This document shows positions 2 through 51,815 of a stretch of DNA of 64,000 nt, in pieces. Numbering within the stretch: the first letter of the stretch is position 1; each line of letters opens with the position of its first letter. The position numbers were made by a program, and so were the translations under genes. This DNA comes from Candidatus Saccharicenans sp. (GTDB lineage Bacteria > Acidobacteriota > Aminicenantia > Aminicenantales > Saccharicenantaceae). The stretch lies in the NCBI GenBank assembly GCA_017992175.1, contig JAGOPD010000004.1:29477-93476 (forward strand), read 5' to 3'. The notes beneath the pieces are model-generated. The model was not told where the DNA came from. It ran no database searches and worked only from the letters and a program-made list of their open reading frames with translations.

Positions 2-235
2 AAACACGGTTTGCTATTTGAAAAACTTGATGAAAAAGGTTGGCCGCTTGACCTGAGGGTCGGACGTCACCTGTCATCTATTATTGTCATTTTAAAGACC
101 TGGTCAGAACTTCGTCCTGACCGGCTGATTGAGGCTGAGGAAATTCCCCATTATTCAGAGATTGTCCAGAAGACCACGGGTTTTTATCTCAAAGATCCGG
201 CCCGGGCAGAAGCTGACCGTCTCTTTTTTGAGTAG
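2..235 (+). CDS. 3' end of a CDS that starts left of the window; function unknown
   Basis: The frame is open from base 2 to TAG at 233-235 (the track lists only 11..235). Its tail overlaps the convergent gene 189..1304. No family is recognisable from the visible ~77 aa. Confidence 0.35.
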   Translation, partial: KHGLLFEKLDEKGWPLDLRVGRHLSSIIVILKTWSELRPDRLIEAEEIPHYSEIVQKTTGFYLKDPARAEADRLFFE

Positions 236-1304
236 GACGGTTAAAAATAACAATGGCTGCACAGGCCAGGATATAAACAGCCAGGAGCAGCCAGAGCTTC
301 CTTTTATAAGAATCTTCCTGCTGAAGTTTTAAATCCTTATCAACTTGAGGTAAGGGCTGCGGATCCCAGGGCAAATTGTAACGCTCAACCAGCCCCCTGA
401 TGTTGAGGAGATGAATTACCGGAATTCCTTCGCTGGCCAGGCGCTGGATCAGCCCACAGCGGTTTTCAGGCGGTATCTTTTTGACCTGAGTCAGTCCGGG
501 GCGAAGCTCCAGAACAGAGGAATCGCGTCCTAAATTGACCAGACTGCCGCCGATATTGATAAAGGCCCCGACAGGCCTGGCACCGGCTGCTTCCTTAAAC
601 AGGCGAACATGGGTTTCTACCATGGATTTAAGCCCGTCAGGTTCAAGAAACTCTAATCCCAGGGCTTGAGCTTCTTGCCTCAGTCTGGATTTTAGATCCT
701 CAGGATACTCCCGGCCGGAATCATCTTCTCCTCCCCAGGTGACAGCCAGGAGGCGGTGCTGGTTAAAGCCAGCCTGACGCAGGCACTTTTCAATCGACAG
801 CCAGGTAAAATCAGGTTGATTGGCTCCCCATTGAGAAGCACCGAGCGAAACAATAACCAGTAGTTTAACCTCCATGGCCCGGGCGGCACAGTAGGCTGCC
901 ACCGCCAGCGCTGGAAAAGAGCCAGAAGCCCCGGCCGCCACCACCTGACCCTTCTTAACTCCGGCCTGGTGAAGGAGGCGGACCAGCAGAGCCGCCATAG
1001 CCGGGTTGGTGGTGGTCCGCTTGGCTTCCAGCTGACCAAGGGTCGTGGTCAGAGGACTCGACTCCAGGCCAATTAACCCGGTCTTCATCGGATCGAACGG
1101 ATTTTTCCCGGGCATCAGGCCAAGTTTTTCCTGACAATTATATATTTCCTTTTCTGCCTCAACCATTAGCCGGGCGGCCTCAGCTTCATCCGGAGCCAGT
1201 TCCTTTCCGGCAGGTTCAAGCCAGAAATAAAAGAGGAGATAAAAAGCCAGGCTGACCGCCGCTAAATAAAAAATAGTTTTATAGCTGACTTTCGCAGTTG
1301 TCAT
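189..1304 (-). CDS. poly-gamma-glutamate system protein (third gene of PgsA-less PGA clusters); N-terminal membrane anchor
   Basis: It lies immediately downstream of pgsB-pgsC with a 3 nt gap. It has an N-terminal TM helix (IFYLAAVSLAFYLLFYFWL) and is 371 aa long. The call rests on context and my recollection of a family of this name, not on a search. Confidence 0.55.
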   Translation of the reverse strand: MTTAKVSYKTIFYLAAVSLAFYLLFYFWLEPAGKELAPDEAEAARLMVEAEKEIYNCQEKLGLMPGKNPFDPMKTGLIGLESSPLTTTLGQLEAKRTTTNPAMAALLVRLLHQAGVKKGQVVAAGASGSFPALAVAAYCAARAMEVKLLVIVSLGASQWGANQPDFTWLSIEKCLRQAGFNQHRLLAVTWGGEDDSGREYPEDLKSRLRQEAQALGLEFLEPDGLKSMVETHVRLFKEAAGARPVGAFINIGGSLVNLGRDSSVLELRPGLTQVKKIPPENRCGLIQRLASEGIPVIHLLNIRGLVERYNLPWDPQPLPQVDKDLKLQQEDSYKRKLWLLLAVYILACAAIVIFNRPTQKRDGQLLPGPDL

Positions 1305-1307
1305 CTT

Positions 1308-1757
1308 TTAGAAAAATAGCTGACTGAGAAAAAAAGTTAAAACTGAAACAAAAATAAGTGAGGCCAGTGAGGGCAGAATCTTTTGCCGCTCGAAACTGGA
1401 AGCCAGAAGGCCAGGGACTACCCAGCCAATTACTCTGAGACCAACTGGTTCAGCCAGAAGATGAGGCAGAGCTAAGCTCCAGGCTTGTCCCAGACAGGCT
1501 CCGGTTAGAATCAGCAGAACAAATCTCCGGCGGCCAAAAATGATGAAATAACGTGATAGAAACCGGCCAATAAGCAAGGTCAGAAAGGCCACCGCCACAG
1601 TACTGAGGGGGCGCCAGGGCTGGTTAAGATACAAAGCAAAATAGCCGGGCACAATCAGGCCGCCGGGAGAAAGGCCGGTAATCTCGGCATAGAGGAGAGC
1701 CAGGAGCAGCCCGAGGAAGAAAGAGCTATAACTTGATGGCATCGGCCTTCCTTTCAA
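1308..1757 (-). CDS. pgsC: poly-gamma-glutamate biosynthesis membrane protein PgsC/CapC
   Basis: 149 aa and very hydrophobic. Motifs align to B. subtilis PgsC: GLIVPGYFALYLNQP, FGRRRF, VVPGLLAS. It overlaps the pgsB stop; the true start may be Met6 at 1742. Confidence 0.8.
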   Translation of the reverse strand: MKGRPMPSSYSSFFLGLLLALLYAEITGLSPGGLIVPGYFALYLNQPWRPLSTVAVAFLTLLIGRFLSRYFIIFGRRRFVLLILTGACLGQAWSLALPHLLAEPVGLRVIGWVVPGLLASSFERQKILPSLASLIFVSVLTFFLSQLFF

Positions 1758-2994
1758 GATAATCTATCATTTCCTGTCCAAAACCAACAATATTGCCCAG
1801 GCCAAAAACTACCGGCTCGGATTGAGTCTGTAAGTCATGATCTGAGGAAATAGAAGAAAAATATGTTAAAATGTCCCGCAGAACAGTTTCCGGCCTGGAG
1901 CCTCTGACAGCATAAACTGATTGGCTCAGGGATGGCTTTAATTTTTTCAAGAGAAGCCGGCGGGCCGGCGCCCCTCCAGGTCCCTGAAGGGCTAAGCCCG
2001 AAAACTTTAACTGTCGCCCGCTCTCCGGATCAGTCAAAAGACCTTTTTGCCATTCCTTAGCCAGAAAATCAACCCATTGCCTGGTGCGGTCTCCACGATC
2101 AGCTCTGAAAGATAACAGGCCATAGACGGCCCTCCCAGCCCAGCCAGTTCTGTCCAGAATTTTGAACATGGCCTCGAGCGAAGACTGCGGATCGTTGGCT
2201 GCAAACAGACTGACAAAATAGAGCTTTTTCTCCAGGCCATCAAAACTTTTTACCCACACCCGGGGACAGCCAGCATCAGGATTAACTCGAGCTAATCCCT
2301 GTCTAATCGTCTCATCACTCAAGCCACAGGCCCGAAGGATATTAACCGCCAGCCTGATATTGGGTTCAAACTCAGGATAAGACAGCTGGCTGGCCAATAA
2401 TTCACTGGCCGAATCTTTTTTGACTGCGATGACCGGAGCCTTTTTCTTCCTGGCTTCAGCCGGCAGCGGTGGAAAAAGCTCTTCCTCAGGAATATAAACA
2501 GGGGTTTGAGGGCGAAAGGCTGAGGTCAAAGCCCGGGCAATTTCTTCTTTGGTCTCACCCAGGGCCTCAAGATGATCAAGCCGGATATTGCTGACCACCA
2601 GTAAGTCCGGCTGCAGAAGATAGTTTGTTTCGGCCCGCAGGCATTCGGGCTGGATACTCATCATTTCCGACACTAAATAATCCGCTTTTTGCCCGGCAGC
2701 CATTCTAACCAGCTTTTTCTGCTCAAGGATGGTCGGCTTCCCTCTTCTCTTTATTTCTTCTTCCTGCCCGTCAGGATAAATAACGGCCGGCCTTGAACCG
2801 GTCGTCTTGGCCATCACCCGGTAACCGGCCTGCCTCAAGCCGGCAGCGATCAATCTGGTGATACTTGACTTGCCCCTGATACCGGTCACAGCCAGCCGGT
2901 GGGGAATTTTTTTAACCAGGCGGCGGTGACTCAGAGCTTCGAACCCTAAGTAAAGAAGAAGGACCAGAAAAGACAGAAGCAAAATCTTGTTCAT
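1726..2994 (-). CDS. pgsB: poly-gamma-glutamate synthase PgsB/CapB (Mur-ligase-like amide ligase)
   Basis: N-terminal TM helix followed by the P-loop-like GIRGKSSITRLIAAGL. FAANDPQS and RADRGDRT match B. subtilis PgsB (GFAANDASS, RADRVDRT). 422 aa. Confidence 0.85.
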   Translation of the reverse strand: MNKILLLSFLVLLLYLGFEALSHRRLVKKIPHRLAVTGIRGKSSITRLIAAGLRQAGYRVMAKTTGSRPAVIYPDGQEEEIKRRGKPTILEQKKLVRMAAGQKADYLVSEMMSIQPECLRAETNYLLQPDLLVVSNIRLDHLEALGETKEEIARALTSAFRPQTPVYIPEEELFPPLPAEARKKKAPVIAVKKDSASELLASQLSYPEFEPNIRLAVNILRACGLSDETIRQGLARVNPDAGCPRVWVKSFDGLEKKLYFVSLFAANDPQSSLEAMFKILDRTGWAGRAVYGLLSFRADRGDRTRQWVDFLAKEWQKGLLTDPESGRQLKFSGLALQGPGGAPARRLLLKKLKPSLSQSVYAVRGSRPETVLRDILTYFSSISSDHDLQTQSEPVVFGLGNIVGFGQEMIDYLERKADAIKL

Positions 2995-3108
2995 CTGAAC
3001 AGCCAGTTAATAGCCACTTTCTGTTTTTGAGTTTATAAAAATAAATAAATAACCGCAACCGGAACAAAGATTTTAAGTCAGGGACCTGGCTACTTTGATT
3101 TCCTTGAT

Positions 3109-3148
3109 GGTAAAGAAGAAAGAGAGGGGTGCTGCTTAGCACCCCTCT
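3109..3148 (-). terminator. intrinsic terminator on the minus strand
   Basis: 10 bp GC-rich stem agaggggtgc (3123-3132) / gcacccctct (3139-3148) with a 6 nt loop. On the minus strand it is followed by CTTTCTTCTTTA. It begins 3 nt after the stop of ORF 3151..3387. Confidence 0.65.
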
Positions 3149-3392
3149 AATTAATTGAAGGAAGGGGGAATGGAAAGAAGGGCAAAGAAGGGCAAAAAGG
3201 AGGCATTTATAAATTTTTGGGTGCGCTCATCGTCTTCAAGATAATAAAAGGAGGGAGAACTCGATTCACTTACTGGCCCAGTTATCCTCAACTTCTCCCT
3301 CCAAGTCCGAATAACACTGTTTATATAAAAAAATGAAGATGTCATTGCTTCTTCTCTAAGAGTTTTTGCTCGACCTTTTTCCTTCATTCTAA
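3119..3392 (-). ncRNA. candidate sigma-54-dependent small transcript (sRNA, or nearly leaderless mRNA for a 78 aa peptide)
   Basis: Bounded by a perfect -24/-12 promoter (3403-3418; predicted TSS ~3392) and the terminator at 3123-3148. It contains a 10 bp stem (3250-3259 / 3293-3302) and a ~48 nt pyrimidine-rich tract (3157-3204). Confidence 0.4.
3151..3387 (-). CDS. hypothetical 78 aa protein (ATG-start version of track ORF 3151..3456); coding status uncertain
   Basis: ATG at 3387 lies only ~5 nt downstream of the predicted sigma-54 TSS and has no SD. The TTG-started N-terminal extension in the track is occupied by the promoter itself. No family recognised. Confidence 0.25.
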   Translation of the reverse strand: MKEKGRAKTLREEAMTSSFFYINSVIRTWREKLRITGPVSESSSPSFYYLEDDERTQKFINASFLPFFALLSIPPSFN

Positions 3393-3402
3393 CTTCTAAT
3401 AC

Positions 3403-3418
3403 AGCAACTTTTGTGCCA
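3403..3418 (-). promoter_or_regulatory. sigma-54 (-24/-12) promoter, perfect consensus
   Basis: The minus strand reads TGGCAC-AAAAG-TTGCT, matching the consensus TGGCAC-N5-TTGCW with GG and GC at the canonical spacing. Confidence 0.7.
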
Positions 3419-3477
3419 GATTGGTCAAGGGGAAAGATAAAAAAATCACCAGTCAAATATAAAAAATATTACAGAGT

Positions 3478-3496
3478 CCGTAAAATAGTTTTACAG
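3478..3496. promoter_or_regulatory. dyad CTGTAAAA-CTA-TTTTACGG; candidate enhancer-binding-protein site (UAS)
   Basis: 8-3-8 inverted repeat with one mismatch, centred ~95 bp upstream of the predicted TSS of the 3403-3418 promoter. An A/T-rich, bend-prone tract lies in between. Confidence 0.45.
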
Positions 3497-3521: not shown

Positions 3522-4388
3522 CTATAGTTCCAGTCCTGGACAGAAACTTTTTGACCGGGCTAAAATCAGGCTCCCCTGTTTAACTTTGAGATGCCTGGAA
3601 ATAACCTCGCACTTAGCCTTAAGCAAAAAGTAAAACGGGCCACGGGCCTGTTCCAGGCATTCATAATTTCCCTGCCCCTTGCTGATGATGAGACCGGCTT
3701 CTTTCAAAATCCCGGTAAACTCTTCAGAGCATTGTTTTATGACCATTCCGGGGGCCTGGCAGCCGGAAGACACCACCTTAGCCACTTCCTCCAGGCCGGA
3801 CAGCCGGGCTTCTTCCAGGCTGGCATCATTGATAATAGGCCCTTCTCTGACGGCATAGATTACCTTCCGGCCGAGCTGCTCAATTAATAAGCGGTCAAAA
3901 ACGGTTTCTCCGGCATTATCACCCAGAAAAACTATTGTTCCAGCTTTTTTAAGATCAGACCTGAAAAGTTCATAATCATCGAGAGCCAGTTCTTCTGTTT
4001 CGAACAGGCTTTCAGACTGAGGCCAGCTACTGGCTGCCCCGGCTCCCAGGTCAATGATATTTCCAGCTAAGGAAAACATGATGGCCTTTCTCAACCTGTC
4101 GGGCGCCTGTAAGACTCTTTTTTTGAGCTCCGGGTATAGAGCCAGAGCCTGTTTTATATCCTGTCTCTTAATCTCAAAATAAGGATCCTTAACTCCGGTT
4201 AACTCCGCCAGCCATTTATAAAGATCGGCTGAGATTTCTGGCGGGGTCCGGCCAAAGTCGGTCTCAGCCAGAAAACGGCAGGCCTGTCTGGTTATATTAA
4301 GAGCCATCGGCCCTCCGGTTTTTTGAACGGCTAAAACTCTTAAGACCTGAGAAAGATGGCAGAGATAACATTCAGCTTCGGCCAGCAT
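3522..4388 (-). CDS. DUF89 / ARMT1-like damage-control phosphatase family protein
   Basis: N-terminal CYLCHL, GDNAGE and KGQGNYE motifs typical of DUF89. 288 aa. Confidence 0.75.
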   Translation of the reverse strand: MLAEAECYLCHLSQVLRVLAVQKTGGPMALNITRQACRFLAETDFGRTPPEISADLYKWLAELTGVKDPYFEIKRQDIKQALALYPELKKRVLQAPDRLRKAIMFSLAGNIIDLGAGAASSWPQSESLFETEELALDDYELFRSDLKKAGTIVFLGDNAGETVFDRLLIEQLGRKVIYAVREGPIINDASLEEARLSGLEEVAKVVSSGCQAPGMVIKQCSEEFTGILKEAGLIISKGQGNYECLEQARGPFYFLLKAKCEVISRHLKVKQGSLILARSKSFCPGLEL

Positions 4389-4460
4389 GGTCAGAGTTTA
4401 GCATTTTTAAGATTGACCTTTAAGCCCGAAAAACAGGAAATATAGATTGTGTCCCCTGTT

Positions 4461-4820
4461 TTAAGCCAGAAGAAGGTCAATGGTACCAGTCAGGGCTTTA
4501 AGGTCGAGAGGCTTGGTAAAAAGGTGATCAATTTTTAAATTTTGAATTTCGTCCGGTTTTATCTGATCAGGGAAAGCCGAGATCAGAACCACTTTTCCCT
4601 GATAACCGGCCTGCCGGAAATTTTGAATCATTTGCAGGCCATTTTCGCGGGGCAAACGGAAATCAGCAATAATCAGATCTATATCTGCCTTTTGAAACCT
4701 GGCTAAGGCTTCAGCCGCATCCCCGGCTAAATAGACGTTATACTTGGTAACCAGCAGCAAAAAGAATGTCTTGCGGATGCATTCATCATCATCAACCACG
4801 ACAATTCTCTTTTTCGGCAT
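4461..4820 (-). CDS. single-domain response regulator (receiver only)
   Basis: Receiver fold motifs: RIVVVDDDE, DLIIADFRLP, a T/S position, and K in FTKPLD. Start re-assigned to Met12 (ATG 4820), which has SD AAGGAG 5 nt upstream. The track start at 4853 lies inside a sigma-54 promoter. Confidence 0.85.
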   Translation of the reverse strand: MPKKRIVVVDDDECIRKTFFLLLVTKYNVYLAGDAAEALARFQKADIDLIIADFRLPRENGLQMIQNFRQAGYQGKVVLISAFPDQIKPDEIQNLKIDHLFTKPLDLKALTGTIDLLLA

Positions 4821-4841
4821 AAAAACTCCTTTGAAAGTTAC

Positions 4842-4857
4842 AGCAGATTTCATGCCA
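4842..4857 (-). promoter_or_regulatory. sigma-54 (-24/-12) promoter for the receiver gene
   Basis: The minus strand reads TGGCAT-GAAAT-CTGCT with correct GG-N10-GC spacing. The predicted TSS is ~4831, giving a leader of about AAGGAGUUUUU before the ATG. Confidence 0.6.
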
Positions 4858-4951: not shown

Positions 4952-6316
4952 TCAATCGGAGGTGTCAATTTTTAAATCATAATCCTTTATTTTCTTATCG
5001 AGGGTTGGCCTGGAAATATCAAGAATCTGGCTGGCCCGGCTTTTACTGCCTTTGGTTGCTTCCAGCACATACTGGATATATCTCTTTTCTATCTCCCACA
5101 AGGGAACTAATTCCTTGCTAAGGAGCGTCTGCCCTTCAGGCGAGGCCGGCGGAGTTGTTTCCAGGGGAAGATACTCTTTTAAGACTATATCCCCTTTGGC
5201 CAGAATGACAGCCCTGATCAGGGCATTTTCCAGCTCCCGGACATTGCCTTTCCAGGGCTGATTCACCAGAAAATCCATTACTTCCGGCGGCACTTTCCGG
5301 ACATTTTTCTTTAAATCCCGGTTAATCTTTTCTAAAAGATAGGCTACCAGATCAGGTATATCTTCCCGTCTTTCTCTGAGAGGTGGCAAATTAATTTCCA
5401 CCACTCTTAGCCGGTAATAAAGATCTTCCCTGAATTTGCCCTGGGTCACCAGGTCCTTGAGATTCTGATTGGTCGCAGCGATAATCCGGGCTTCCGTCTT
5501 CAGGACCTTTTCGCCGCCAACCTTCATAAAATCCCTGTTTTCAATTACCCGGAGAAGTTTTGATTGCAAACCGGAAGAGATATCGCCTATTTCATCCAGA
5601 AATAACGTCCCTTTGCCGGCTATTTCAAATTTGCCCCTGGTCTCGTTCACCGCATCGGTAAAAGCTCCCCGGACATGGCCAAAAAGTTCAGATTCAAGCA
5701 AAGTGTCGGAGATAGCCGAACAATTGATGACAATAAAAGGTTCATCCCGGAAAGGGCCATTGTAGTGAATAGCTTTGGCTACCAGCTCCTTGCCGGTGCC
5801 GCTTTCGCCCTGAATCAGAATATTGGTTCTGGTGTTGGCCACCAGGCCGATTAGCTTGAAGACTTCTCTCATCTGGGGTGAACGGCCGATAATATTATCA
5901 ATTTGATATTCTTTTTGCTTTTCCTCCAGAAGATAGCTGACTTTCTCTTCCAGGGCTTTCATCTGCAGGGCTTTATCAATGGTCAGATCGATCTCAAGGT
6001 TATCAAGAGGCTTGACCAGATATTCGAAAGCCCCGGCTTTAACCGCTTCAACAGTCGTTCGCATATCATCAAAAGCGGTCATGATAATCACTGCCGCCTC
6101 CTGGTCTTCAGCTTTAATCTTCCTTAAAACATCAAGCCCGTTCATATCCGGCAGTTTGACATCCAGCAGGACCAGATCTGGCTGAAATTCCCGGAAAATG
6201 GACAGGCCTTCTTCCCCGTTTTCGGCTCCTTTAACTTCAAAGCCCCTTTTCTTAAGATGAGAAAGCAGTGTCCGGCTGACTAAACTATCATCTTCTATTA
6301 CCATAATTTTAGTCAT
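4952..6316 (-). CDS. sigma-54-dependent response regulator (NtrC family: REC + AAA+ + Fis-type HTH)
   Basis: REC domain (MVIEDD, DLVLLDVKLPDMNG, KP). AAA+ Walker A GESGTGKE, GAFTDA (GAFTGA-like sigma-54 contact loop), DEIGD Walker B. C-terminal HTH SRASQILDISRPTLDKKIK. Confidence 0.92.
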   Translation of the reverse strand: MTKIMVIEDDSLVSRTLLSHLKKRGFEVKGAENGEEGLSIFREFQPDLVLLDVKLPDMNGLDVLRKIKAEDQEAAVIIMTAFDDMRTTVEAVKAGAFEYLVKPLDNLEIDLTIDKALQMKALEEKVSYLLEEKQKEYQIDNIIGRSPQMREVFKLIGLVANTRTNILIQGESGTGKELVAKAIHYNGPFRDEPFIVINCSAISDTLLESELFGHVRGAFTDAVNETRGKFEIAGKGTLFLDEIGDISSGLQSKLLRVIENRDFMKVGGEKVLKTEARIIAATNQNLKDLVTQGKFREDLYYRLRVVEINLPPLRERREDIPDLVAYLLEKINRDLKKNVRKVPPEVMDFLVNQPWKGNVRELENALIRAVILAKGDIVLKEYLPLETTPPASPEGQTLLSKELVPLWEIEKRYIQYVLEATKGSKSRASQILDISRPTLDKKIKDYDLKIDTSD

Positions 6317-7797
6317 TAAATTTTCTCCTTAGCCTGAATCTCTGAGGGGATTCTAATCAGAAAACAGCTGCCCTGCCCTTCCTTCGCTACCACTTTAATC
6401 GTACCTCCGTGCTGTTCAACCAGACGGCGGGCATTAGCCAGGCCGAGTCCGGCCCCTGAGCTTTTGGTCGTAAAGAAAGGTTCAAAAATATTTTCCCAGT
6501 CCTTCCCGGGAATACCGTTGCCTGTATCACAAATTTTTACCTCAAAAAATGATTTTTCACCGTCTTGAACAAGAGATAACGAAATCTCAATTACTCCGCC
6601 CTCGCCCACCGCCTCATAGGCATTACGAAGAATATTAAGAAATACCTGGCGGAGCTTATCACCGTCAACGAAAGCTGGAGGCAATGGCTGTTGATAGTTC
6701 TTTTTGACCTGAACATGTTTCTCGGCCAGTGAAGGCAGCAGGATTTTTAATGATTCATCAATGACCTGATCCAGGCCAAAGTAGTCGGGCTGAAGGACTG
6801 AGACCCGGGTAAAACCTAACAATTCTTTGATAAATTTCTCGATTTGCTCTATGCCTTCCTGGGCAATCGACAGGTGTTCTCTTTCTATCTCGTCCAGCTG
6901 GTCATTATCAGCCAGTTTCTGAATGTTAAGTTTGACTGAAGTTAAAGGATTACGGATTTCATGAGCAATGGTTGCCGACAATTTGCCAATTGAAGCCAGT
7001 TTTTCAGCTTGAACCAGCTTTTTGTTGGCTTCTTCCATCTGCTGCCTGGCCACATTCAATTCTTCAGTCATCTGATTGAAGCTGTCGGTCAGAGCTCCAA
7101 TTTCATCCGAGGAAATAAGAGGTATATGATAGCTGAAATCACCCCGTGAAATCCTTCTGGTCCCTTCTAACAAATTTTCTATGGGCCTGGTCAGCCGCTT
7201 AACCAGGAAGTTGATGCCGGTAATAGTCAGAAGCAAGGCCAGAAAACCGAGGCCAAAGAGGGTCAGCCTGGACTGGTTTATCCTTTGTCTGACGTCGTCA
7301 AGTTTTAAGCCAATTTTAACCGATCCCCATTTAACGTCTGAACCGGTCACATAGATCGGTATCTCGATCTGCATGACTTCATAACTTTCCTGGCCGTTTT
7401 CTAAATGCAGGTTTTGATAAAAAACTGCCTCTGGCGGGACGTTACCGAGGCAGCTGGTCTGATTTAGAATCTCGGTATTGCCGGCAATGCTTTCACTTAC
7501 CACCACCGGCCGCCCGGTGCGGTCGTAGAAAATGACATAAGCTAGATCATCCCTGATCAAGCCGGTGATATTTTCGTCTATTGATTCGAGTTCCCACAAG
7601 GTAAAATGCCTGGCGTTCATCTCAGCTATATATCTGACCATGAGCAAGCCGCGGTTTCTTTTTTCTTCATAAATAAACCTGGTTTCCCGGCTCTGAATGA
7701 CGGCCAGCACCCCGATAATCAGGAAAACCAGAATGACCGACACCCAGAAAACCAGCTGGGCATAAATTGAGATTCTAAATTTCCGGCTCGGATTCAT
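6316..7797 (-). CDS. sensor histidine kinase (2 TM, ~150 aa periplasmic domain, HAMP, HisKA, HATPase_c)
   Basis: H-box ATIAHEIRNPL. N box NILRNAYEA. G boxes DTGNGI and GAGLGL. HAMP follows the second TM. The stop overlaps the regulator start by 1 nt (TAATG). Confidence 0.9.
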   Translation of the reverse strand: MNPSRKFRISIYAQLVFWVSVILVFLIIGVLAVIQSRETRFIYEEKRNRGLLMVRYIAEMNARHFTLWELESIDENITGLIRDDLAYVIFYDRTGRPVVVSESIAGNTEILNQTSCLGNVPPEAVFYQNLHLENGQESYEVMQIEIPIYVTGSDVKWGSVKIGLKLDDVRQRINQSRLTLFGLGFLALLLTITGINFLVKRLTRPIENLLEGTRRISRGDFSYHIPLISSDEIGALTDSFNQMTEELNVARQQMEEANKKLVQAEKLASIGKLSATIAHEIRNPLTSVKLNIQKLADNDQLDEIEREHLSIAQEGIEQIEKFIKELLGFTRVSVLQPDYFGLDQVIDESLKILLPSLAEKHVQVKKNYQQPLPPAFVDGDKLRQVFLNILRNAYEAVGEGGVIEISLSLVQDGEKSFFEVKICDTGNGIPGKDWENIFEPFFTTKSSGAGLGLANARRLVEQHGGTIKVVAKEGQGSCFLIRIPSEIQAKEKI

Positions 7798-9407
7798 TGG
7801 TCTATCCAGGCATCTTTTAGGTTTAGATAAAAAAGGCCCGCCGGCTGAGGTCTGAGATTCTTGATATAAGGCTGATAGGCTGTCCGCTGCTTGAAATAAT
7901 AAAGGGGAATGGCCGGCACTTCATTTCTCAGCAGTTCCTCCATCTGTCTGAAAAGCTTGACCCGCCGCTCCAGGAGGCTGGTGTTGCGCTGCTCATCCAG
8001 CCAGTTATCAAGCTGTTCCTGCTTATATTGAAAATAGTTTGAATTGAGGTATGACCTGGAATAAAAAAGAGGGTAGAGCAAAAATTCCGGATCAGGCACC
8101 GGCATTGACCAGTCAAAATAAACCAGATAGGGAGTCCGGGCAGTTTTTATCTCGTCCAGAGATTTTATCAGTTTCAGCTGTAAATTAAGGCCGGCCGGGC
8201 GCAATTCATTTTTAAGCTCGCTAAAAAGCTTTTCAGCCTGCTCCTGCCCCGACAATTCACAATAAAGGTTAACAGTCAGGGCCTGGTCCGAACGGCCCAG
8301 TCCATGGGCTGCCAATCTCTCTGAGAGACGGCCAAAACTCAATTCTTCAGGGGGAGGAGAAGGCAGAAAACCAGGAAGATAAGGCGGGATGTAATCATCC
8401 AGAACCTGAGCAAAATAGGCAGGAGAAGAAACCAGAGCAGCCAGCTTGCTCTTTTCAACCAAGCGGCCAAGCAGGCTTCTGACCTCTGGCTGGTCGAAGG
8501 GCGGCAGATGGCAGCTAAAGAACAAATAACTTACCTGAAGGGAATTGCTTTCCAGAACCTGGTACCTGTCTCTTGAAATCCGGTAAGAAAGATAAGGAAC
8601 AATTTGAACTTCATCCCGGAAAAAACCCTCCAGCAAAAAATAAGGGCTGACTTCAATTCCGTTGATATACGGTTTACGGCCGAAATACTGGTCATTTCTG
8701 GTCAGGCTGATGCCAATAATATTGAGCTTCGAATCCCTCAGCCAGTAATTGAATTTGAAGGGACCGGCCCCGGCCGGGCGGTCAAAAAACTTTTTCTTAT
8801 CTTTTTCCACCAGCTGACGGGGAAGAACCTTGGCGAAATTAGCAGCCAGAAAATATAAATTGGCCACACTGGCGTACTTCCAGTCGATTTCGATGGTCGT
8901 CTCATCTATGATCTTAAGGCCGCTAACTTCGCTGGCCCGGCCCTGCCAGAACTCTTCGCCGCCTTCAATTCTCTGAGCAAAGGTATAAAAATAGGGATTA
9001 GTCTTCAGCCTGAAAAGCCTTTCCAGGGAATATTTAACGTCAGCAGCCGTGACCGGCTGGCCGTTATGGAAAGTTGCCTTATTCCTGAGATAAAAGATTG
9101 TTCTTCGCCCGCCATTATCAATTACCCAGTATTCAGCCAGCCCGGGGGTGATCTCTGTATCCCGGTCAAGCCTCAACAGCCCTTCATACAGGTTTTCAAT
9201 AACCAGGGGATAGCCCTTCCCGGCCGGGTCAAGATCAGTCTTAAGACTCGAGCCATAGGCTTTAATTTTCAGCACACCGCCGGTTCGCGGCCTGACTGTC
9301 CGGTCCTGGCCCTGGACCCCGTCTGCTATCAGAAGCAGGCAGAATAAAGACAGAATGGCTGACAGGGCAAAAACACCGCCCCGGCGATTTGTCCCCAAAT
9401 TGGTCAT
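7794..9407 (-). CDS. periplasmic solute-binding protein, family 5 (peptide/nickel type), orphan; likely co-sensor
   Basis: Signal peptide and family-5 signature region TIFYLRNKATFHNGQPVTAADVKYSLERL. 537 aa. 4 nt overlap with the kinase start. No ABC permease or ATPase genes nearby. Confidence 0.75.
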   Translation of the reverse strand: MTNLGTNRRGGVFALSAILSLFCLLLIADGVQGQDRTVRPRTGGVLKIKAYGSSLKTDLDPAGKGYPLVIENLYEGLLRLDRDTEITPGLAEYWVIDNGGRRTIFYLRNKATFHNGQPVTAADVKYSLERLFRLKTNPYFYTFAQRIEGGEEFWQGRASEVSGLKIIDETTIEIDWKYASVANLYFLAANFAKVLPRQLVEKDKKKFFDRPAGAGPFKFNYWLRDSKLNIIGISLTRNDQYFGRKPYINGIEVSPYFLLEGFFRDEVQIVPYLSYRISRDRYQVLESNSLQVSYLFFSCHLPPFDQPEVRSLLGRLVEKSKLAALVSSPAYFAQVLDDYIPPYLPGFLPSPPPEELSFGRLSERLAAHGLGRSDQALTVNLYCELSGQEQAEKLFSELKNELRPAGLNLQLKLIKSLDEIKTARTPYLVYFDWSMPVPDPEFLLYPLFYSRSYLNSNYFQYKQEQLDNWLDEQRNTSLLERRVKLFRQMEELLRNEVPAIPLYYFKQRTAYQPYIKNLRPQPAGLFYLNLKDAWIDQ

Positions 9408-9441: not shown

Positions 9442-10716
9442 TCACCTCTGAGTTATATTCAATTTTCTGGCTGTCTCATTCACCTGGTTAAAAACTCTGA
9501 AAAAGTTTTGCCCCCAGATTTTGGCCAGGTCCTCATCAGAATAGCCCCGCTTCATTAATTCAACGGTGACATTGATCATCTGACTGACGTCATTACAACC
9601 GCTGACTCCCCCGCCCCCGTCAAAATCAGTTCCAACACCTACATAATCAACTCCAACCAGTTTGACCACATGATCAATATGGTCAACCAGATCCTGAACT
9701 GTGGCCAGTTCAACCGGATACTTACGGTTTAACTCCTGCATTTCAGCCATGATTTTCTCTCGCTGGGCTTCGTCCTTGATATCTCTCCAGTTGCCATATT
9801 TAGCTCTGAATTCCTGGAAAGCTTGATCCCGGTCTGGATTCGGTTTAGGCTTCTTGACATAAGCTGAGAGAAAACAGATCTGTATGACTCCCCCTTTGGC
9901 CGCCAGAGCCTTAATCATGTCGTCGGTCAAATTTCTTGGATTATCGCAAACGGCCCGGACACAGGAATGGGAAGCGATAATTGGCGCCTGGCTGCTGGCC
10001 AGAACATCCCAGAAGCTCCGGTCAGAAGCATGGGAAATATCAACAATCATTCCCAGCCGGTTACATTCCGCTACCACCTGCCGGCCAAACTGGCTTAAGC
10101 CCCGGTCTTCGGGATCATTCCGGTCAGTTGAAGAATCGCAAATATCATTATCCGAAGTATGACAGAGGGTGATATAGCGCACTCCTTCCACATAAAAATG
10201 TTTAATCAGGCTTAACTCCTGGCCGATAGCATACCCGTTTTCGATTCCCAGAAAGGCAGTCAGCTTACCCTGTTTTTTAAATTTTTTAGCGTCTTCGGGG
10301 CTAAAAGCCAGACCAATTACCTGGTTATTGGTGGCGACCATTTCTTTCACAGCCGAAATCAGATTGTCGGCTATCTGGCGGGCAGCCTGATAACCTTCGG
10401 GGGTGCGAGGCTCCTGGGAGACAAAAGCGGCAAAAAACTCGACATCAAGTCCACCTTCTTTCATCCGGGGAAGGTCAATTTTCCCGGCCCCGGGGGAATC
10501 AGGATCATGCCGTTCGGCCGGATTCCAGTTTCCCCGGACAAATCTCATGGCTGTATCACAATGGGTATCGACGGTGATGATTTTCCGATGAAGGGCCCTG
10601 GCTCGCTCCAGAAGCTGCTGGTCGCTGAGCCCGGCAGAACTTTGATTGTCAGCGGGCAAAATAGAGAATAGCATCATCAATAGAACTCCGGTTAAAGCTA
10701 ACCTTCTTGTCGCCAT
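9442..10716 (-). CDS. membrane/secreted dipeptidase, peptidase family M19
   Basis: Signal peptide. M19 metal-ligand motifs VDTHCDT, GIENG, ITLCHTSDN, VDISHASD, ASHS, GTDFDG. Confidence 0.85.
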   Translation of the reverse strand: MATRRLALTGVLLMMLFSILPADNQSSAGLSDQQLLERARALHRKIITVDTHCDTAMRFVRGNWNPAERHDPDSPGAGKIDLPRMKEGGLDVEFFAAFVSQEPRTPEGYQAARQIADNLISAVKEMVATNNQVIGLAFSPEDAKKFKKQGKLTAFLGIENGYAIGQELSLIKHFYVEGVRYITLCHTSDNDICDSSTDRNDPEDRGLSQFGRQVVAECNRLGMIVDISHASDRSFWDVLASSQAPIIASHSCVRAVCDNPRNLTDDMIKALAAKGGVIQICFLSAYVKKPKPNPDRDQAFQEFRAKYGNWRDIKDEAQREKIMAEMQELNRKYPVELATVQDLVDHIDHVVKLVGVDYVGVGTDFDGGGGVSGCNDVSQMINVTVELMKRGYSDEDLAKIWGQNFFRVFNQVNETARKLNITQR

Positions 10717-50015: not shown

Positions 50016-51773
50016 TTAACCCTTTTTATTTTCAGGGCGAACAGGCTGCCGCTGGACGGTATTAGTCCTGGTTCCGCTGGAACCGGGGCTGGTCGAAGTT
50101 GTGTTCTTGAGTCTGTCTGCCGGCAAGGACCGGCTGGTTGGTTCAGCCCGGTAGTTATTATTTACAGTTTTGCCCTGAGCCTGGCTGGAAGGCCTGGTTA
50201 TAGCTCCCCTGGAATCAGAGGAAGAAGTTCTGGACGGACTGATCCGCTGCGCCTCAATTTTTTCCTGGCTGACCCTTTCCGCTCTGGCTGGCTGTCTGAC
50301 AGTTTGACTTGAGGACTGATAAGGGCGGCTGGTGGCCTGGCTTTTAACTATTCTCCGGTCAGGTTCTATCCTTGATGGAAAATTTGAAGTCTGCCGGTTA
50401 TTGATGACGGTCTTCCCTTGAGCTGACCCTGGTGTCAGGCTGGATGGCTGCCGCCCGGTAGATTTTAATGCTGTTCTTGAGACCGATCCGAGTTCTCTGA
50501 CTGTTTTACCTGATACCTTTCCTGGAGAAGACAGGGAAGATGGCCGCAGGCGGTTGCCAGTTGCCGGCCGCCAGGAGGGCTGATTTTCCTGAAGTCTGAT
50601 CTTTTCAACTCCTCTTAACTCAGAGGGGCGGACATCTGCCCGGATGGCATGAGGTGATTGAAGCTGGTTTCTCTTGACCATGACCAGGGCTCTGGAGTTG
50701 ACAGGATAATAAGCCTCATTATATCTTTCATAAACATAATTATTGATCACCACCACCGGCCGGTTGTAGTAGCTCAGAGGGCACCAGCCAACATAGTTAG
50801 CGTCATAATACCAGCTGACCCAGGCTGGCCCCCAGTGAACCGTCGGGATCCAGTACCAGCCGAGGCCCAGCCGCCAGTGCCATCGTCCGTAATGATAAAC
50901 AGCCCAGCCCCAGGGTTCAGCTGAAATCCAGGTCCAGCCAATCCGGGGATACCAGGTCCAGCGCCCGACAAGATATGGACGCCAGTCAACAACGGTAACT
51001 GCCGGCACCCAGACATAACCATAAGGCCGTTCATAGACCCAGCGGCCATAGGACGAGAGTTCTGGTTCATATTCCCGGATTTCTTCCGGTAAATAGTGAG
51101 AATTAGAAGACTCAGCCATCTGCAATAATCCATCCCGCTCTTGATTCCAGCTGGCCAGTTCATCGTTGATATAAGCCAGGTCAGTAGCCCCTGGTTCGAC
51201 TTCTCCATCCGAGGCCAGCCCGGACTCACCGGCCTGAAGGGCTAAAGACTGGTTTTCGCCTGAAGCTTCCAGGCTCCCTTCGAGGGCTATAGCCACTGTT
51301 CCTTCCTGTTCGTTTGCTTCGAAACGGTAGAGCCCGCCTTGAAGGACATAAAAAGAAGCATCACCGGTGTGGACTGAAAACGATTTTTCCTGTTCTAAAT
51401 AATTAATCCGAAGATAAGCCCGGCCCTGATATAGATGAAGGGAAAAATCTCCATTTTCATCCTGGGGCAAGCGGGCTATTTCTAAGACTGAATACCGGTC
51501 AAGTCTTAAGAAATTTTCACGGCCAAAACTCAATTCGACCAATCCATTTTCAGTGACAATCTTATCTCCGCTGCCCAGGGCAAAATTGACTTCGGCTGCT
51601 TCCACTCCAAGGTCAGAAGCCCGTTCGACCTTAGCTTCTCCCTGGAGGTAGCTGATCCGGGCATAAGAATAAGGATAATAAGATTCTTCCTGCGCCTGAG
51701 CCGGAAGGCAAAATGAGAACGAGAAGAAGAGGAGGGCAGCAATCATTAAACTTGATTGATTTATCTTTTTCAT
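50016..51773 (-). CDS. secreted FecR-domain protein with a Trp/Tyr-rich WxxGxW-type repeat region and an S/T/R/P-rich low-complexity tail
   Basis: Signal peptide. FecR-like beta region (aa ~40-200). YGRWVYERPYGYVWVP...WGWAVYHYGRWHWRLGLGWYWIP block. ~200 aa disordered basic tail. SD AAGGAG. Confidence 0.6.
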   Translation of the reverse strand: MKKINQSSLMIAALLFFSFSFCLPAQAQEESYYPYSYARISYLQGEAKVERASDLGVEAAEVNFALGSGDKIVTENGLVELSFGRENFLRLDRYSVLEIARLPQDENGDFSLHLYQGRAYLRINYLEQEKSFSVHTGDASFYVLQGGLYRFEANEQEGTVAIALEGSLEASGENQSLALQAGESGLASDGEVEPGATDLAYINDELASWNQERDGLLQMAESSNSHYLPEEIREYEPELSSYGRWVYERPYGYVWVPAVTVVDWRPYLVGRWTWYPRIGWTWISAEPWGWAVYHYGRWHWRLGLGWYWIPTVHWGPAWVSWYYDANYVGWCPLSYYNRPVVVINNYVYERYNEAYYPVNSRALVMVKRNQLQSPHAIRADVRPSELRGVEKIRLQENQPSWRPATGNRLRPSSLSSPGKVSGKTVRELGSVSRTALKSTGRQPSSLTPGSAQGKTVINNRQTSNFPSRIEPDRRIVKSQATSRPYQSSSQTVRQPARAERVSQEKIEAQRISPSRTSSSDSRGAITRPSSQAQGKTVNNNYRAEPTSRSLPADRLKNTTSTSPGSSGTRTNTVQRQPVRPENKKG

Positions 51774-51799: not shown

Positions 51800-51815
51800 A
51801 GCAAGATTTATGCCA
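51800..51815 (-). promoter_or_regulatory. sigma-54 (-24/-12) promoter for the FecR-like gene
   Basis: The minus strand reads TGGCAT-AAATC-TTGCT. The predicted TSS is ~51789, giving a 16 nt leader that contains AAGGAG. Confidence 0.65.

Follow-up and report, generated by a model that had tools for sequence, protein, structure and literature searches.

The intergenic region that separates the operon of an NtrC-type regulator from pgsB, a gene for poly-gamma-glutamate (PGA) synthesis, in Candidatus Saccharicenans sp. (contig JAGOPD010000004.1, positions 29,477 to 93,476; this stretch of 64,000 nucleotides is called the window) raises the question of whether a very short transcription unit is made for an RNA, for a protein or for both. 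An earlier reading of the letters alone, the sequence-only reading, had proposed a self-contained mini transcription unit that depends on sigma-54 and gives either a small RNA (sRNA) or a nearly leaderless small protein. Comparison with homologous loci leads us, with moderate confidence, to a reading that joins the two: a stand-alone dual-function RNA, dependent on sigma-54 and on an enhancer-binding protein (EBP), that would encode a small protein and would carry in addition a module acting at the RNA level. The unit seems to serve as the local output of a signalling system encoded next to it, composed of a solute-binding protein (SBP), a histidine kinase (HK) and the NtrC-type EBP. The aligned loci show an architecture of promoter and upstream activator site, a unit standing on its own, and the marks of selection both on an open reading frame (ORF) and on the sequence and structure of the RNA. 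Coordinates are collected in Table 1.

The family of homologous units was sampled in two ways. A scan based on PgsB, with one genome per species, yielded 34 loci from uncultured Aminicenantes/Saccharicenans and a few other metagenome-assembled genomes, and a profile of the intergenic region placed the unit in 18 of them, with one further truncated copy; 29 more metagenome contigs were recovered through a 27-mer from the invariant block of the unit described below. The total is 53 loci with 40 distinct sequences, and promoter, dyad, ORF and terminator are conserved in all 40. Gene order is constant: SBP, HK, EBP, a single-domain receiver (RR), optionally DUF89, the unit, optionally a convergent NTPase gene and a Xaa-Pro aminopeptidase gene (pepP), then pgsB, pgsC and the poly-gamma-glutamate system protein gene. 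The unit lies directly upstream of pgsB in 18 loci (the clade of the window) and of pepP in four, while in 30 loci the convergent NTPase_1 gene stands between the unit and pepP-pgsB. It is present in all 53 loci with the SBP-HK-EBP-RR module beside the PGA genes, and the EBP gene is syntenic with it in every locus that extends far enough. In 15 PGA loci the unit is absent, and these either miss the HK-EBP module or lie on contigs that end before it; hence, the unit travels with the regulator module and not with the PGA genes as such. As a check on ascertainment, PGA loci without an nhmmer match were also found to be devoid of the EBP module, so diverged copies have not been missed. The adjacency to a likely NtrC-type activator, pointed out by the sequence-only reading, is thereby extended to a strict co-occurrence.

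The promoter is of the -24/-12 type recognized by sigma-54. The consensus TGGCACN5TTGCW has a single match with zero mismatches in the window (TGGCACaaaagTTGCT), with 0.03 expected by chance and a match seen in 3 of 100 shuffles, and TGGCA[CT]-N5-TTGC[AT] occurs in 40/40 distinct units with upstream sequence. Upstream of it a dyad with the core GTAAA-N5-TTTAC, the putative binding site of the activator, is centred about 95 bp from the predicted transcription start and occurs in 39/39 units whose upstream DNA extends to 140 bp or more. Between dyad centre and promoter lie 68-72 bp in 31 units and 79-82 bp in the other eight; the two spacings differ by one helical turn, which matches the expectation for activation dependent on the face of the helix. 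Across 505 kb of related loci both motifs, dyad and promoter, are essentially confined to the unit, implying that the EBP has one local target, and no -24/-12 motif is found ahead of pepP, pgsB or the sensor operon. The neighbouring EBP is the probable ligand of the dyad, its gene (4952-6316) coding for both the sigma-54 interaction and the DNA-binding domains that a cognate activator has. Its sigma-54 contact loop reads GAFTDA, as compared with the canonical GAFTGA. Just downstream of the dyad an A/T tract is kept in all units as TGTAAT(A)TTTTTT(T)A or TTAAACTTTTTTTA, possibly as a bend or IHF-like site or as a second half-site. In two loci (L023/L027) weak GG-N10-GC motifs occur some 400 nt ahead of pgsB; they lie within a coding region and were discarded as an analogous unit.

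A second near-perfect -24/-12 motif (TGGCATAAATCTTGCT) was noticed at 51800-51815 of the minus strand, just past the terminator of the upstream gene and 27 nt before the ATG of a DUF6600 protein gene (50016-51773, minus strand) that has a normal Shine-Dalgarno sequence, AAAGGAGAAG, downstream of the motif. It is likely another sigma-54 promoter of this genome, and gives indirect support for sigma-54 being in use there.

The unit is closed by an intrinsic terminator whose 11-pair stem includes 7 G-C pairs and carries a loop of 4 nt, followed by the tail CTTTCTTCTT. The stem begins 244 nt past position 3392 and 2 nt past the stop codon of the ORF; across the units its arms (GAGGGGTGC...GCACCCCTC) are invariant while the loop varies, and 2-3 nt separate the stop codon from the stem in every case. 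The transcript, with its start placed by the geometry of the promoter, would thus measure about 280 nt, from near 3392 to this terminator. The sequence-only reading is borne out in most of these elements: the perfect -24/-12 promoter is found exactly as described, the GC-rich terminator was placed about 245 nt past the start, and the conserved -24/-12 element, the helically phased dyad and the terminator together delimit a self-contained unit. Its 8-3-8 dyad is present at 3496..3478 (CTGTAAAA-CTA-TTTTACGG), with arms that are complementary in 7 of 8 positions and not perfectly so. In the 30 loci with the NTPase_1 (THEP1-like) gene (3874-4596, minus strand, in L015, and equivalents), this gene follows directly past the terminator and converges on it, for which reason the hairpin may act as a bidirectional terminator. 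Since the long ORF call of NTPase_1 nearly abuts the start of pepP, its true start is probably an internal Met.

Between promoter and terminator the unit contains an ORF of 78 codons, and the last 18-19 of these coincide with a stretch under nucleotide-level constraint. This C/U-rich block of 55 nt is nucleotide-identical in all units, including the 18 derived from the PgsB scan, with the sole exception of a 10-nt deletion in L003/L064. It is predicted to be unpaired and comprises CCUCCUUU, identical to the core of the anti-Shine-Dalgarno sequence, a 10-mer, TTTGCCCTTC, in two tandem copies, and three G-punctuated repeats, GCCUCCUUUUU and twice GCCCUUCUUU. Three Logan contigs from different runs (L036, L037, L038) start at the same base inside the block (position 1), which probably reflects an assembly break at the tandem 10-mer and not a biological end. 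As a codon control, columns with an invariant but degenerate amino acid were examined in the same 17 genomes. Identical codons were found in 0/76 such columns of PgsB, 6/270 of the EBP and 1/46 of PgsC (0-2%), as against 19/19 in the block. Synonymous sites are therefore saturated at these distances, and the block cannot be explained by selection on one protein.

Farther upstream within the ORF, a hairpin (P1) was predicted by RNAalifold. Changes on both sides were observed in 7 of its 17 pairs, and its covariation score was reached by 0 of 500 shuffles. In three loci (L009/L016/L060) a G-to-A change is matched by a C-to-U change on the opposite arm, replacing Glu by Lys and Pro by Ser; the exchange is compensatory for the RNA yet non-synonymous for the protein. 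These patterns indicate that the 3' third of the ORF and the internal hairpin are under selection at the RNA or nucleotide level. Pairing of the 5' purine-rich region with the block was also considered and rejected: the energies are favourable, but a mean z of only -0.6 against shuffles makes it a matter of composition and not of position. Within the window no Rfam family was matched at its gathering score; between 2800 and 3700, at E<=10, the best scores (about 19-20 bits, thresholds 37-79) are sub-threshold noise, and the homologue L015 gave no Rfam match.

It is on this evidence that the reading as a plain small protein gene has to be judged. According to it the transcript is an ordinary mRNA and the effector is its product of 72-81 aa, which has a hydrophobic C-terminal tail rich in Pro and Phe. 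This protein could be a membrane-associated modulator that feeds back on the sensor kinase in the way of MgrB, an accessory of PGA synthase (analogous in function to PgsE/CapE) or a pro-peptide to which the peptide-type SBP responds; the nucleotide invariance would have some other origin, for instance a second overlapping frame or translation kinetics. The ORF is indeed strongly conserved, as detailed below. The last 19-25 residues or so are fixed (..DERTxKF-INASFLPFFALLSIPPSFN), and the public 'hypothetical protein' entries fall into 25 clusters at 90% identity, none with a Pfam domain, every one of which ends in ASFLPFFALLSIPPSFN; at 50% identity, in a set of 1.84 billion representatives, they collapse to 5 clusters, all of this clade, and wherever an organism is named it is Saccharicenans. 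A natural short variant (L029, 4232-4399, and L055) has lost the hairpin and the N-terminal region through an in-frame deletion. What remains is the promoter, the ATG, some 17 codons, the block and the terminator; start, frame and tail are kept in a product of 37 aa, and this variant defines the minimal conserved module. The locus, moreover, opens with an SBP of the family-5 peptide type whose gene overlaps that of the kinase, and peptidase genes flank it.

A purely protein-level function nonetheless leaves the 19/19 identical codons without a cause. An ATG-initiated ORF in the +1 frame (MPPFCPSLPFFPFPLPSI..) does exist inside the block, and two overlapping constrained frames would freeze every base, but this ORF has no ribosome-binding site and in most clades meets no stop ahead of the terminator, so that overlapping coding is an unlikely cause of the invariance. 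The compensatory changes in P1 run against the protein, and amino-acid constraint on the N-terminal two thirds of the product is barely detectable: pN/pS in the first two thirds of the ORF is 0.77, compared with 0.89 and 0.83 in the off-frames, and the entropies of the three codon positions are 0.84/0.88/1.03. No signal peptide was found in the product, no confident fold was obtained, and neither the 78-aa nor the 101-aa version matched a Pfam/NCBIfam family at E<=0.01. A protein gene and nothing else is accordingly rather unlikely.

The opposite simplification, an sRNA that codes for nothing and resembles Qrr, CrcZ or GlmY, would take the block as a seed or as an array titrating a protein, and the open frame as a by-product of a composition rich in purines and in pyrimidines. 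It accounts well for an invariant unpaired block followed by a terminator, for the covariation of P1, for the lack of a canonical Shine-Dalgarno sequence, for the weak amino-acid constraint and for the fact that the loss of a repeat unit is tolerated in one lineage and a frameshift in another; the position directly downstream of an HK-EBP operon is also the pattern of sigma-54-dependent sRNAs (PMC3730234 for Qrr/LuxO). What speaks against it is the behaviour of the reading frame. The ORF is open in 39/40 units, at a length of 72-81 aa (37 aa in the short variant). Stop triplets occur at 62 alignment columns in the other two frames (32 and 30) and at none in the frame of the ORF (33/34 sequences). 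A MAFFT alignment made without regard to codons has 13 distinct gap blocks, and the length of 11 of them is divisible by three (P=2e-4); the large deletion of L029 is likewise in frame. The start codon stands at a homologous place 8-24 nt past TTGCW and the stop codon at one fixed alignment position, both being kept through changes of identity, from ATG to GTG (L066) and among TAA, TGA and TAG. Taken together these features indicate selection to keep the ORF open, and we consider an RNA with no coding role very unlikely.

The same comparison settled which frame is meant. Most relatives have in-frame stops between promoter and ATG, and for this reason only the ATG-initiated ORF can be regarded as conserved; its ATG lies about 5 nt past the predicted transcription start, and the leader reaches up to about 14 nt in relatives. 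The sequence-only reading had called the 101-aa, TTG-initiated ORF misleading and had singled out the 78-aa version, and both statements agree with the homologues, where conservation of the 101-aa ORF across the promoter, the pattern that reading had named as incompatible with its proposal, was not seen. The comparison of syntenic loci that it suggested for telling coding from structural signal returned both, an ORF kept open together with RNA constraint on P1 and on the 3' third. Of its alternative, an sRNA or a nearly leaderless protein, both natures are thus indicated, and the purely non-coding, Qrr/GlmY-like half has become the less likely one, as selection keeps the ORF open. In public annotation the gene calls of the family are inconsistent (P0001, P0002, P0017-P0023): some begin at a TTG ahead of the promoter and give 101 aa, others give 47 aa and begin at an in-frame TTG past the GGAGG of the hairpin arm, a Shine-Dalgarno-like site normally sequestered in P1; some assemblies have no call at all (L035).

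A cis-acting leader of the PGA operon, in which the sigma-54 promoter would be the promoter of pgsB and translation of the leader ORF would decide between termination and read-through, fits the clade of the window, where the unit and pgsB share a strand and the unit lies 125 nt upstream, where a ribosome terminating or stalled 2-3 nt from the stem would cover its 5' arm and where about 19 fixed C-terminal residues beside a free N-terminus recall ribosome-arrest peptides, but it was rejected as a general explanation because of the convergent NTPase gene in 30/53 loci, finds no conserved antiterminator or alternative structure in consensus or single-sequence folds, leaves the nucleotide invariance unexplained and is altogether most improbable. 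In the window's clade, besides, a block at 3025-3060 of the minus strand, GGTTGCGGTTATTTATTTATTTTTATAAACTCAAAA (GGTTGCGG..TTTATTTTTATAAACTCAAA), lies between the terminator and the ATG of pgsB and is conserved only where the unit abuts pgsB. It looks like a promoter of pgsB's own, perhaps of the sigma-70 type, with an atypical spacing (TTGCGG-15 nt-TATAAA). With this block there and the convergent gene elsewhere, the sigma-54 promoter is not simply a pgsB promoter with a long leader.

Several observations weigh against the dual-function reading. On the side of transcription, no rpoN is found among the genes of the 64-kb window. On the side of sampling, the metagenome loci were fished with a 27-mer of the block itself, so that for the block only the 18 loci derived from PgsB are unbiased. 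On the side of the RNA, P2 and the terminator stem never vary and consequently lend no covariation support. The search for a target was likewise negative: RNAduplex of the block against the 43 translation-initiation regions of the window performed no better than random windows, exact complementary words of at least 11 nt in 570 kb were scattered chance matches only, and the best site among the conserved neighbours, in pgsC (AAGGAAGG, median -23 kcal/mol), is within background. On the side of the protein, the ORF has no canonical Shine-Dalgarno sequence while the neighbouring genes have one, and AlphaFold2, run on an 18-sequence alignment, gave no confident fold (pLDDT 61.5, pTM 0.21). Two lineages, finally, depart from the pattern. 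In L065 (1494-1774) one nucleotide is missing from the GGGG run in the hairpin arm, which breaks the ORF, and in L003 (5597-5878) the 10-nt deletion removes one TTTGCCCTTC repeat and changes the tail to ..FFPFPLPSID; the latter deletion recurs in an independent assembly, contig L064. These variants are either tolerated by the RNA part or defective alleles.

Table 1. Features of the unit and of the genes flanking it in the window.
Feature	Position	Strand	Remarks
Sigma-54 (-24/-12) promoter	3403..3418	-	TGGCAC-AAAAG-TTGCT; only perfect match in the window
Upstream activator-site dyad	3480..3494	-	core GTAAA-N5-TTTAC; presumed EBP binding site
Conserved A/T tract	3455..3473	-	TGTAATATTTTTTATATTT; just downstream of the dyad
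Predicted transcription start	3390..3394	-	about 11-13 nt past the -12 GC; from sigma-54 promoter geometry
Conserved small ORF, 78 aa	3151..3387	-	ATG 3385-3387, TAA 3151-3153; product ends in invariant INASFLPFFALLSIPPSFN
ORF-track entry, 101 aa	3151..3456	-	TTG start; not conserved
Hairpin P1 inside the ORF	3250..3302	-	purine arm GGAGGGAGAAgTTGA (GGGGAGGGAGA..) pairs with TCGAgTTCTCCCTCC; RNAalifold
Invariant C/U-rich block	3153..3207	-	AATGCCTCCTTTTTGCCCTTCTTTGCCCTTCTTTCCATTCCCCCTTCCTTCAATT; 55 nt, AATGCC to TTCAATT; last 18-19 codons
Intrinsic terminator	3112..3148	-	stem 3148-3138 / 3133-3123, loop AAGC, U-rich tail to about 3112
Family-5 (peptide/nickel-type) SBP	7794-9407	-	Pfam/NCBIfam
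HAMP HK	6316-7797	-	Pfam/NCBIfam
NtrC-type EBP	4952-6316	-	Response_reg + Sigma54_activat + HTH_8; Pfam/NCBIfam
Single-domain receiver (RR)	4461-4853	-	Pfam/NCBIfam
ARMT1/DUF89 phosphatase	3522-4388	-	Pfam/NCBIfam
pgsB	1726-2994	-	Pfam/NCBIfam
pgsC	1308-1757	-	Pfam/NCBIfam
TIGR04332 'poly-gamma-glutamate system protein'	189-1304	-	Pfam/NCBIfam

The genes on both sides of the unit are all encoded on the minus strand (Table 1), the operon running in the order SBP-HK-EBP-RR-DUF89 and being followed by the intergenic unit and then by pgsB. The SBP gene shares a 4-nt overlap (7794-7797) with the start of the HK gene, which suggests an SBP-dependent sensor as in LuxP/LuxQ. A gene for an M19 membrane dipeptidase (9442-10716, minus strand) lies just upstream of the SBP gene, and in relatives the Xaa-Pro aminopeptidase gene is found between the unit and pgsB; the type of SBP and the flanking peptidases hint at a peptide as the signal.

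For the dual-function reading, we infer the following course of events from the conserved elements. The SBP and the kinase would act as a sensor and lead to phosphorylation of the EBP, which would then occupy the GTAAA-N5-TTTAC dyad, some 95 bp ahead of the start; the A/T tract would permit looping of the DNA, and the EBP would remodel sigma-54 RNA polymerase at TGGCAC-N5-TTGCT. The resulting RNA of about 280 nt would start near 3392 and end at the intrinsic terminator. Translation from the 5'-proximal AUG, behind a very short leader, would give the 72-81-aa protein (78 aa here). The 3' module, consisting of the 55-nt unpaired C/U block with CCUCCUUU and the repeated GCCCUUCUUU together with the terminator, would act at the RNA level, either as a seed for purine-rich (Shine-Dalgarno-like) targets or as a protein-binding array. 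A fixed 3' module beside a compensated hairpin is what would be expected of an RNA module acting in trans. Since the block is part of the ORF, ribosomes translating it would be in competition with the RNA partner for this stretch. It is conceivable, if decidedly unlikely in this specific form, that the block is more than a usual seed or a protein's end, namely a translation-gated decoy, a single-stranded array titrating a conserved partner in the cell, which would be purine-rich ribosome-binding sites or a pyrimidine-binding protein. Ribosomes would switch the decoy off, the fixed nascent tail possibly pausing them, and the SBP-kinase-EBP sensor would control PGA production, or translation more widely, by means of a single transcript that is mRNA and decoy at once.

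Several known systems share part of this design. CrcZ with CbrB and GlmY with GlrR are sigma-54/EBP-dependent sRNAs encoded next to their activators. RNAs of the Qrr, CrcZ and GlmY type are non-coding and proteobacterial, and the conserved unpaired region of CrcZ consists of repeated short motifs. The Qrr sRNAs, which are sigma-54/EBP-dependent and encoded beside their activator LuxO, belong to the same group (PMC3730234; 10.1101/2021.07.01.450815). The unit described here resembles Qrr-LuxO, CrcZ-CbrB and GlmY-GlrR in having a -24/-12 promoter with an upstream activator site, an adjacent HK-EBP operon, a short transcript with an intrinsic terminator and a strongly conserved unpaired region, and the SBP-kinase-EBP cascade resembles LuxP/LuxQ-LuxO. 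It differs from them in being single-copy, in belonging to Aminicenantes (Acidobacteriota), in having unrelated motifs and no Rfam match, and in carrying an ORF of 72-81 codons that is under selection through the conserved region.

Among dual-function RNAs, Spot 42/SpfP and AzuCR have coding sequences that overlap the RNA-active region, implying competition between ribosomes and the RNA partner (PMC12612679), and in SR1 both the coding and the RNA aspects are conserved across species (PMC3526287). As in SgrS/SgrT, SR1/SR1P, Spot 42/SpfP, AzuCR and VcdRP, one short transcript here would combine a translated small ORF with a part acting at the RNA level. The product is longer than most of those described (<50 aa), and for the present unit the evidence is comparative only. 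RpoN is not mentioned in a review of dual-function RNAs, which includes no RpoN-dependent case (PMC12612679). RsaE/RoxS share with the unit unpaired C-rich motifs ahead of the terminator, the anti-Shine-Dalgarno core CCUCCUUU included, and RsaE gives a weak Rfam alignment whose extent is precisely that of C/U block and terminator together, but with 19 bits against a gathering score of 79 (E=1.7) the unit is not a member of RsaE, from which it also differs in promoter type, length, ORF and phylum. Leader and arrest-peptide attenuators (the pyrBI leader, tnaC, the secM type) have in common with it about 20 fixed C-terminal residues, a drifting N-terminus and a stop 2-3 nt from the stem; they are set apart from it by its convergent downstream gene in most loci, the lack of an antiterminator in the folds and its invariant synonymous sites. 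The unit therefore belongs to no described family.

If the dual-function reading is true, this would be the first dual-function RNA dependent on sigma-54 and an EBP, and the first riboregulator candidate of whatever kind from the uncultured Aminicenantes, a group often found in anaerobic digesters, in sludge and in sediments of the subsurface; a literature search retrieved no paper linking Aminicenantes with sigma-54 or RpoN. A block of 55 nt frozen amid saturated synonymous sites is an unusually clean sign of a specific reader, and finding its partner could reveal a new mechanism of RNA binding. The small-ORF family, at present inconsistently called, can now be annotated correctly. Moreover, the distribution of the motifs suggests that a conserved SBP-kinase-EBP system has no local promoter target other than the unit, which would make the output of this signalling pathway directly testable.

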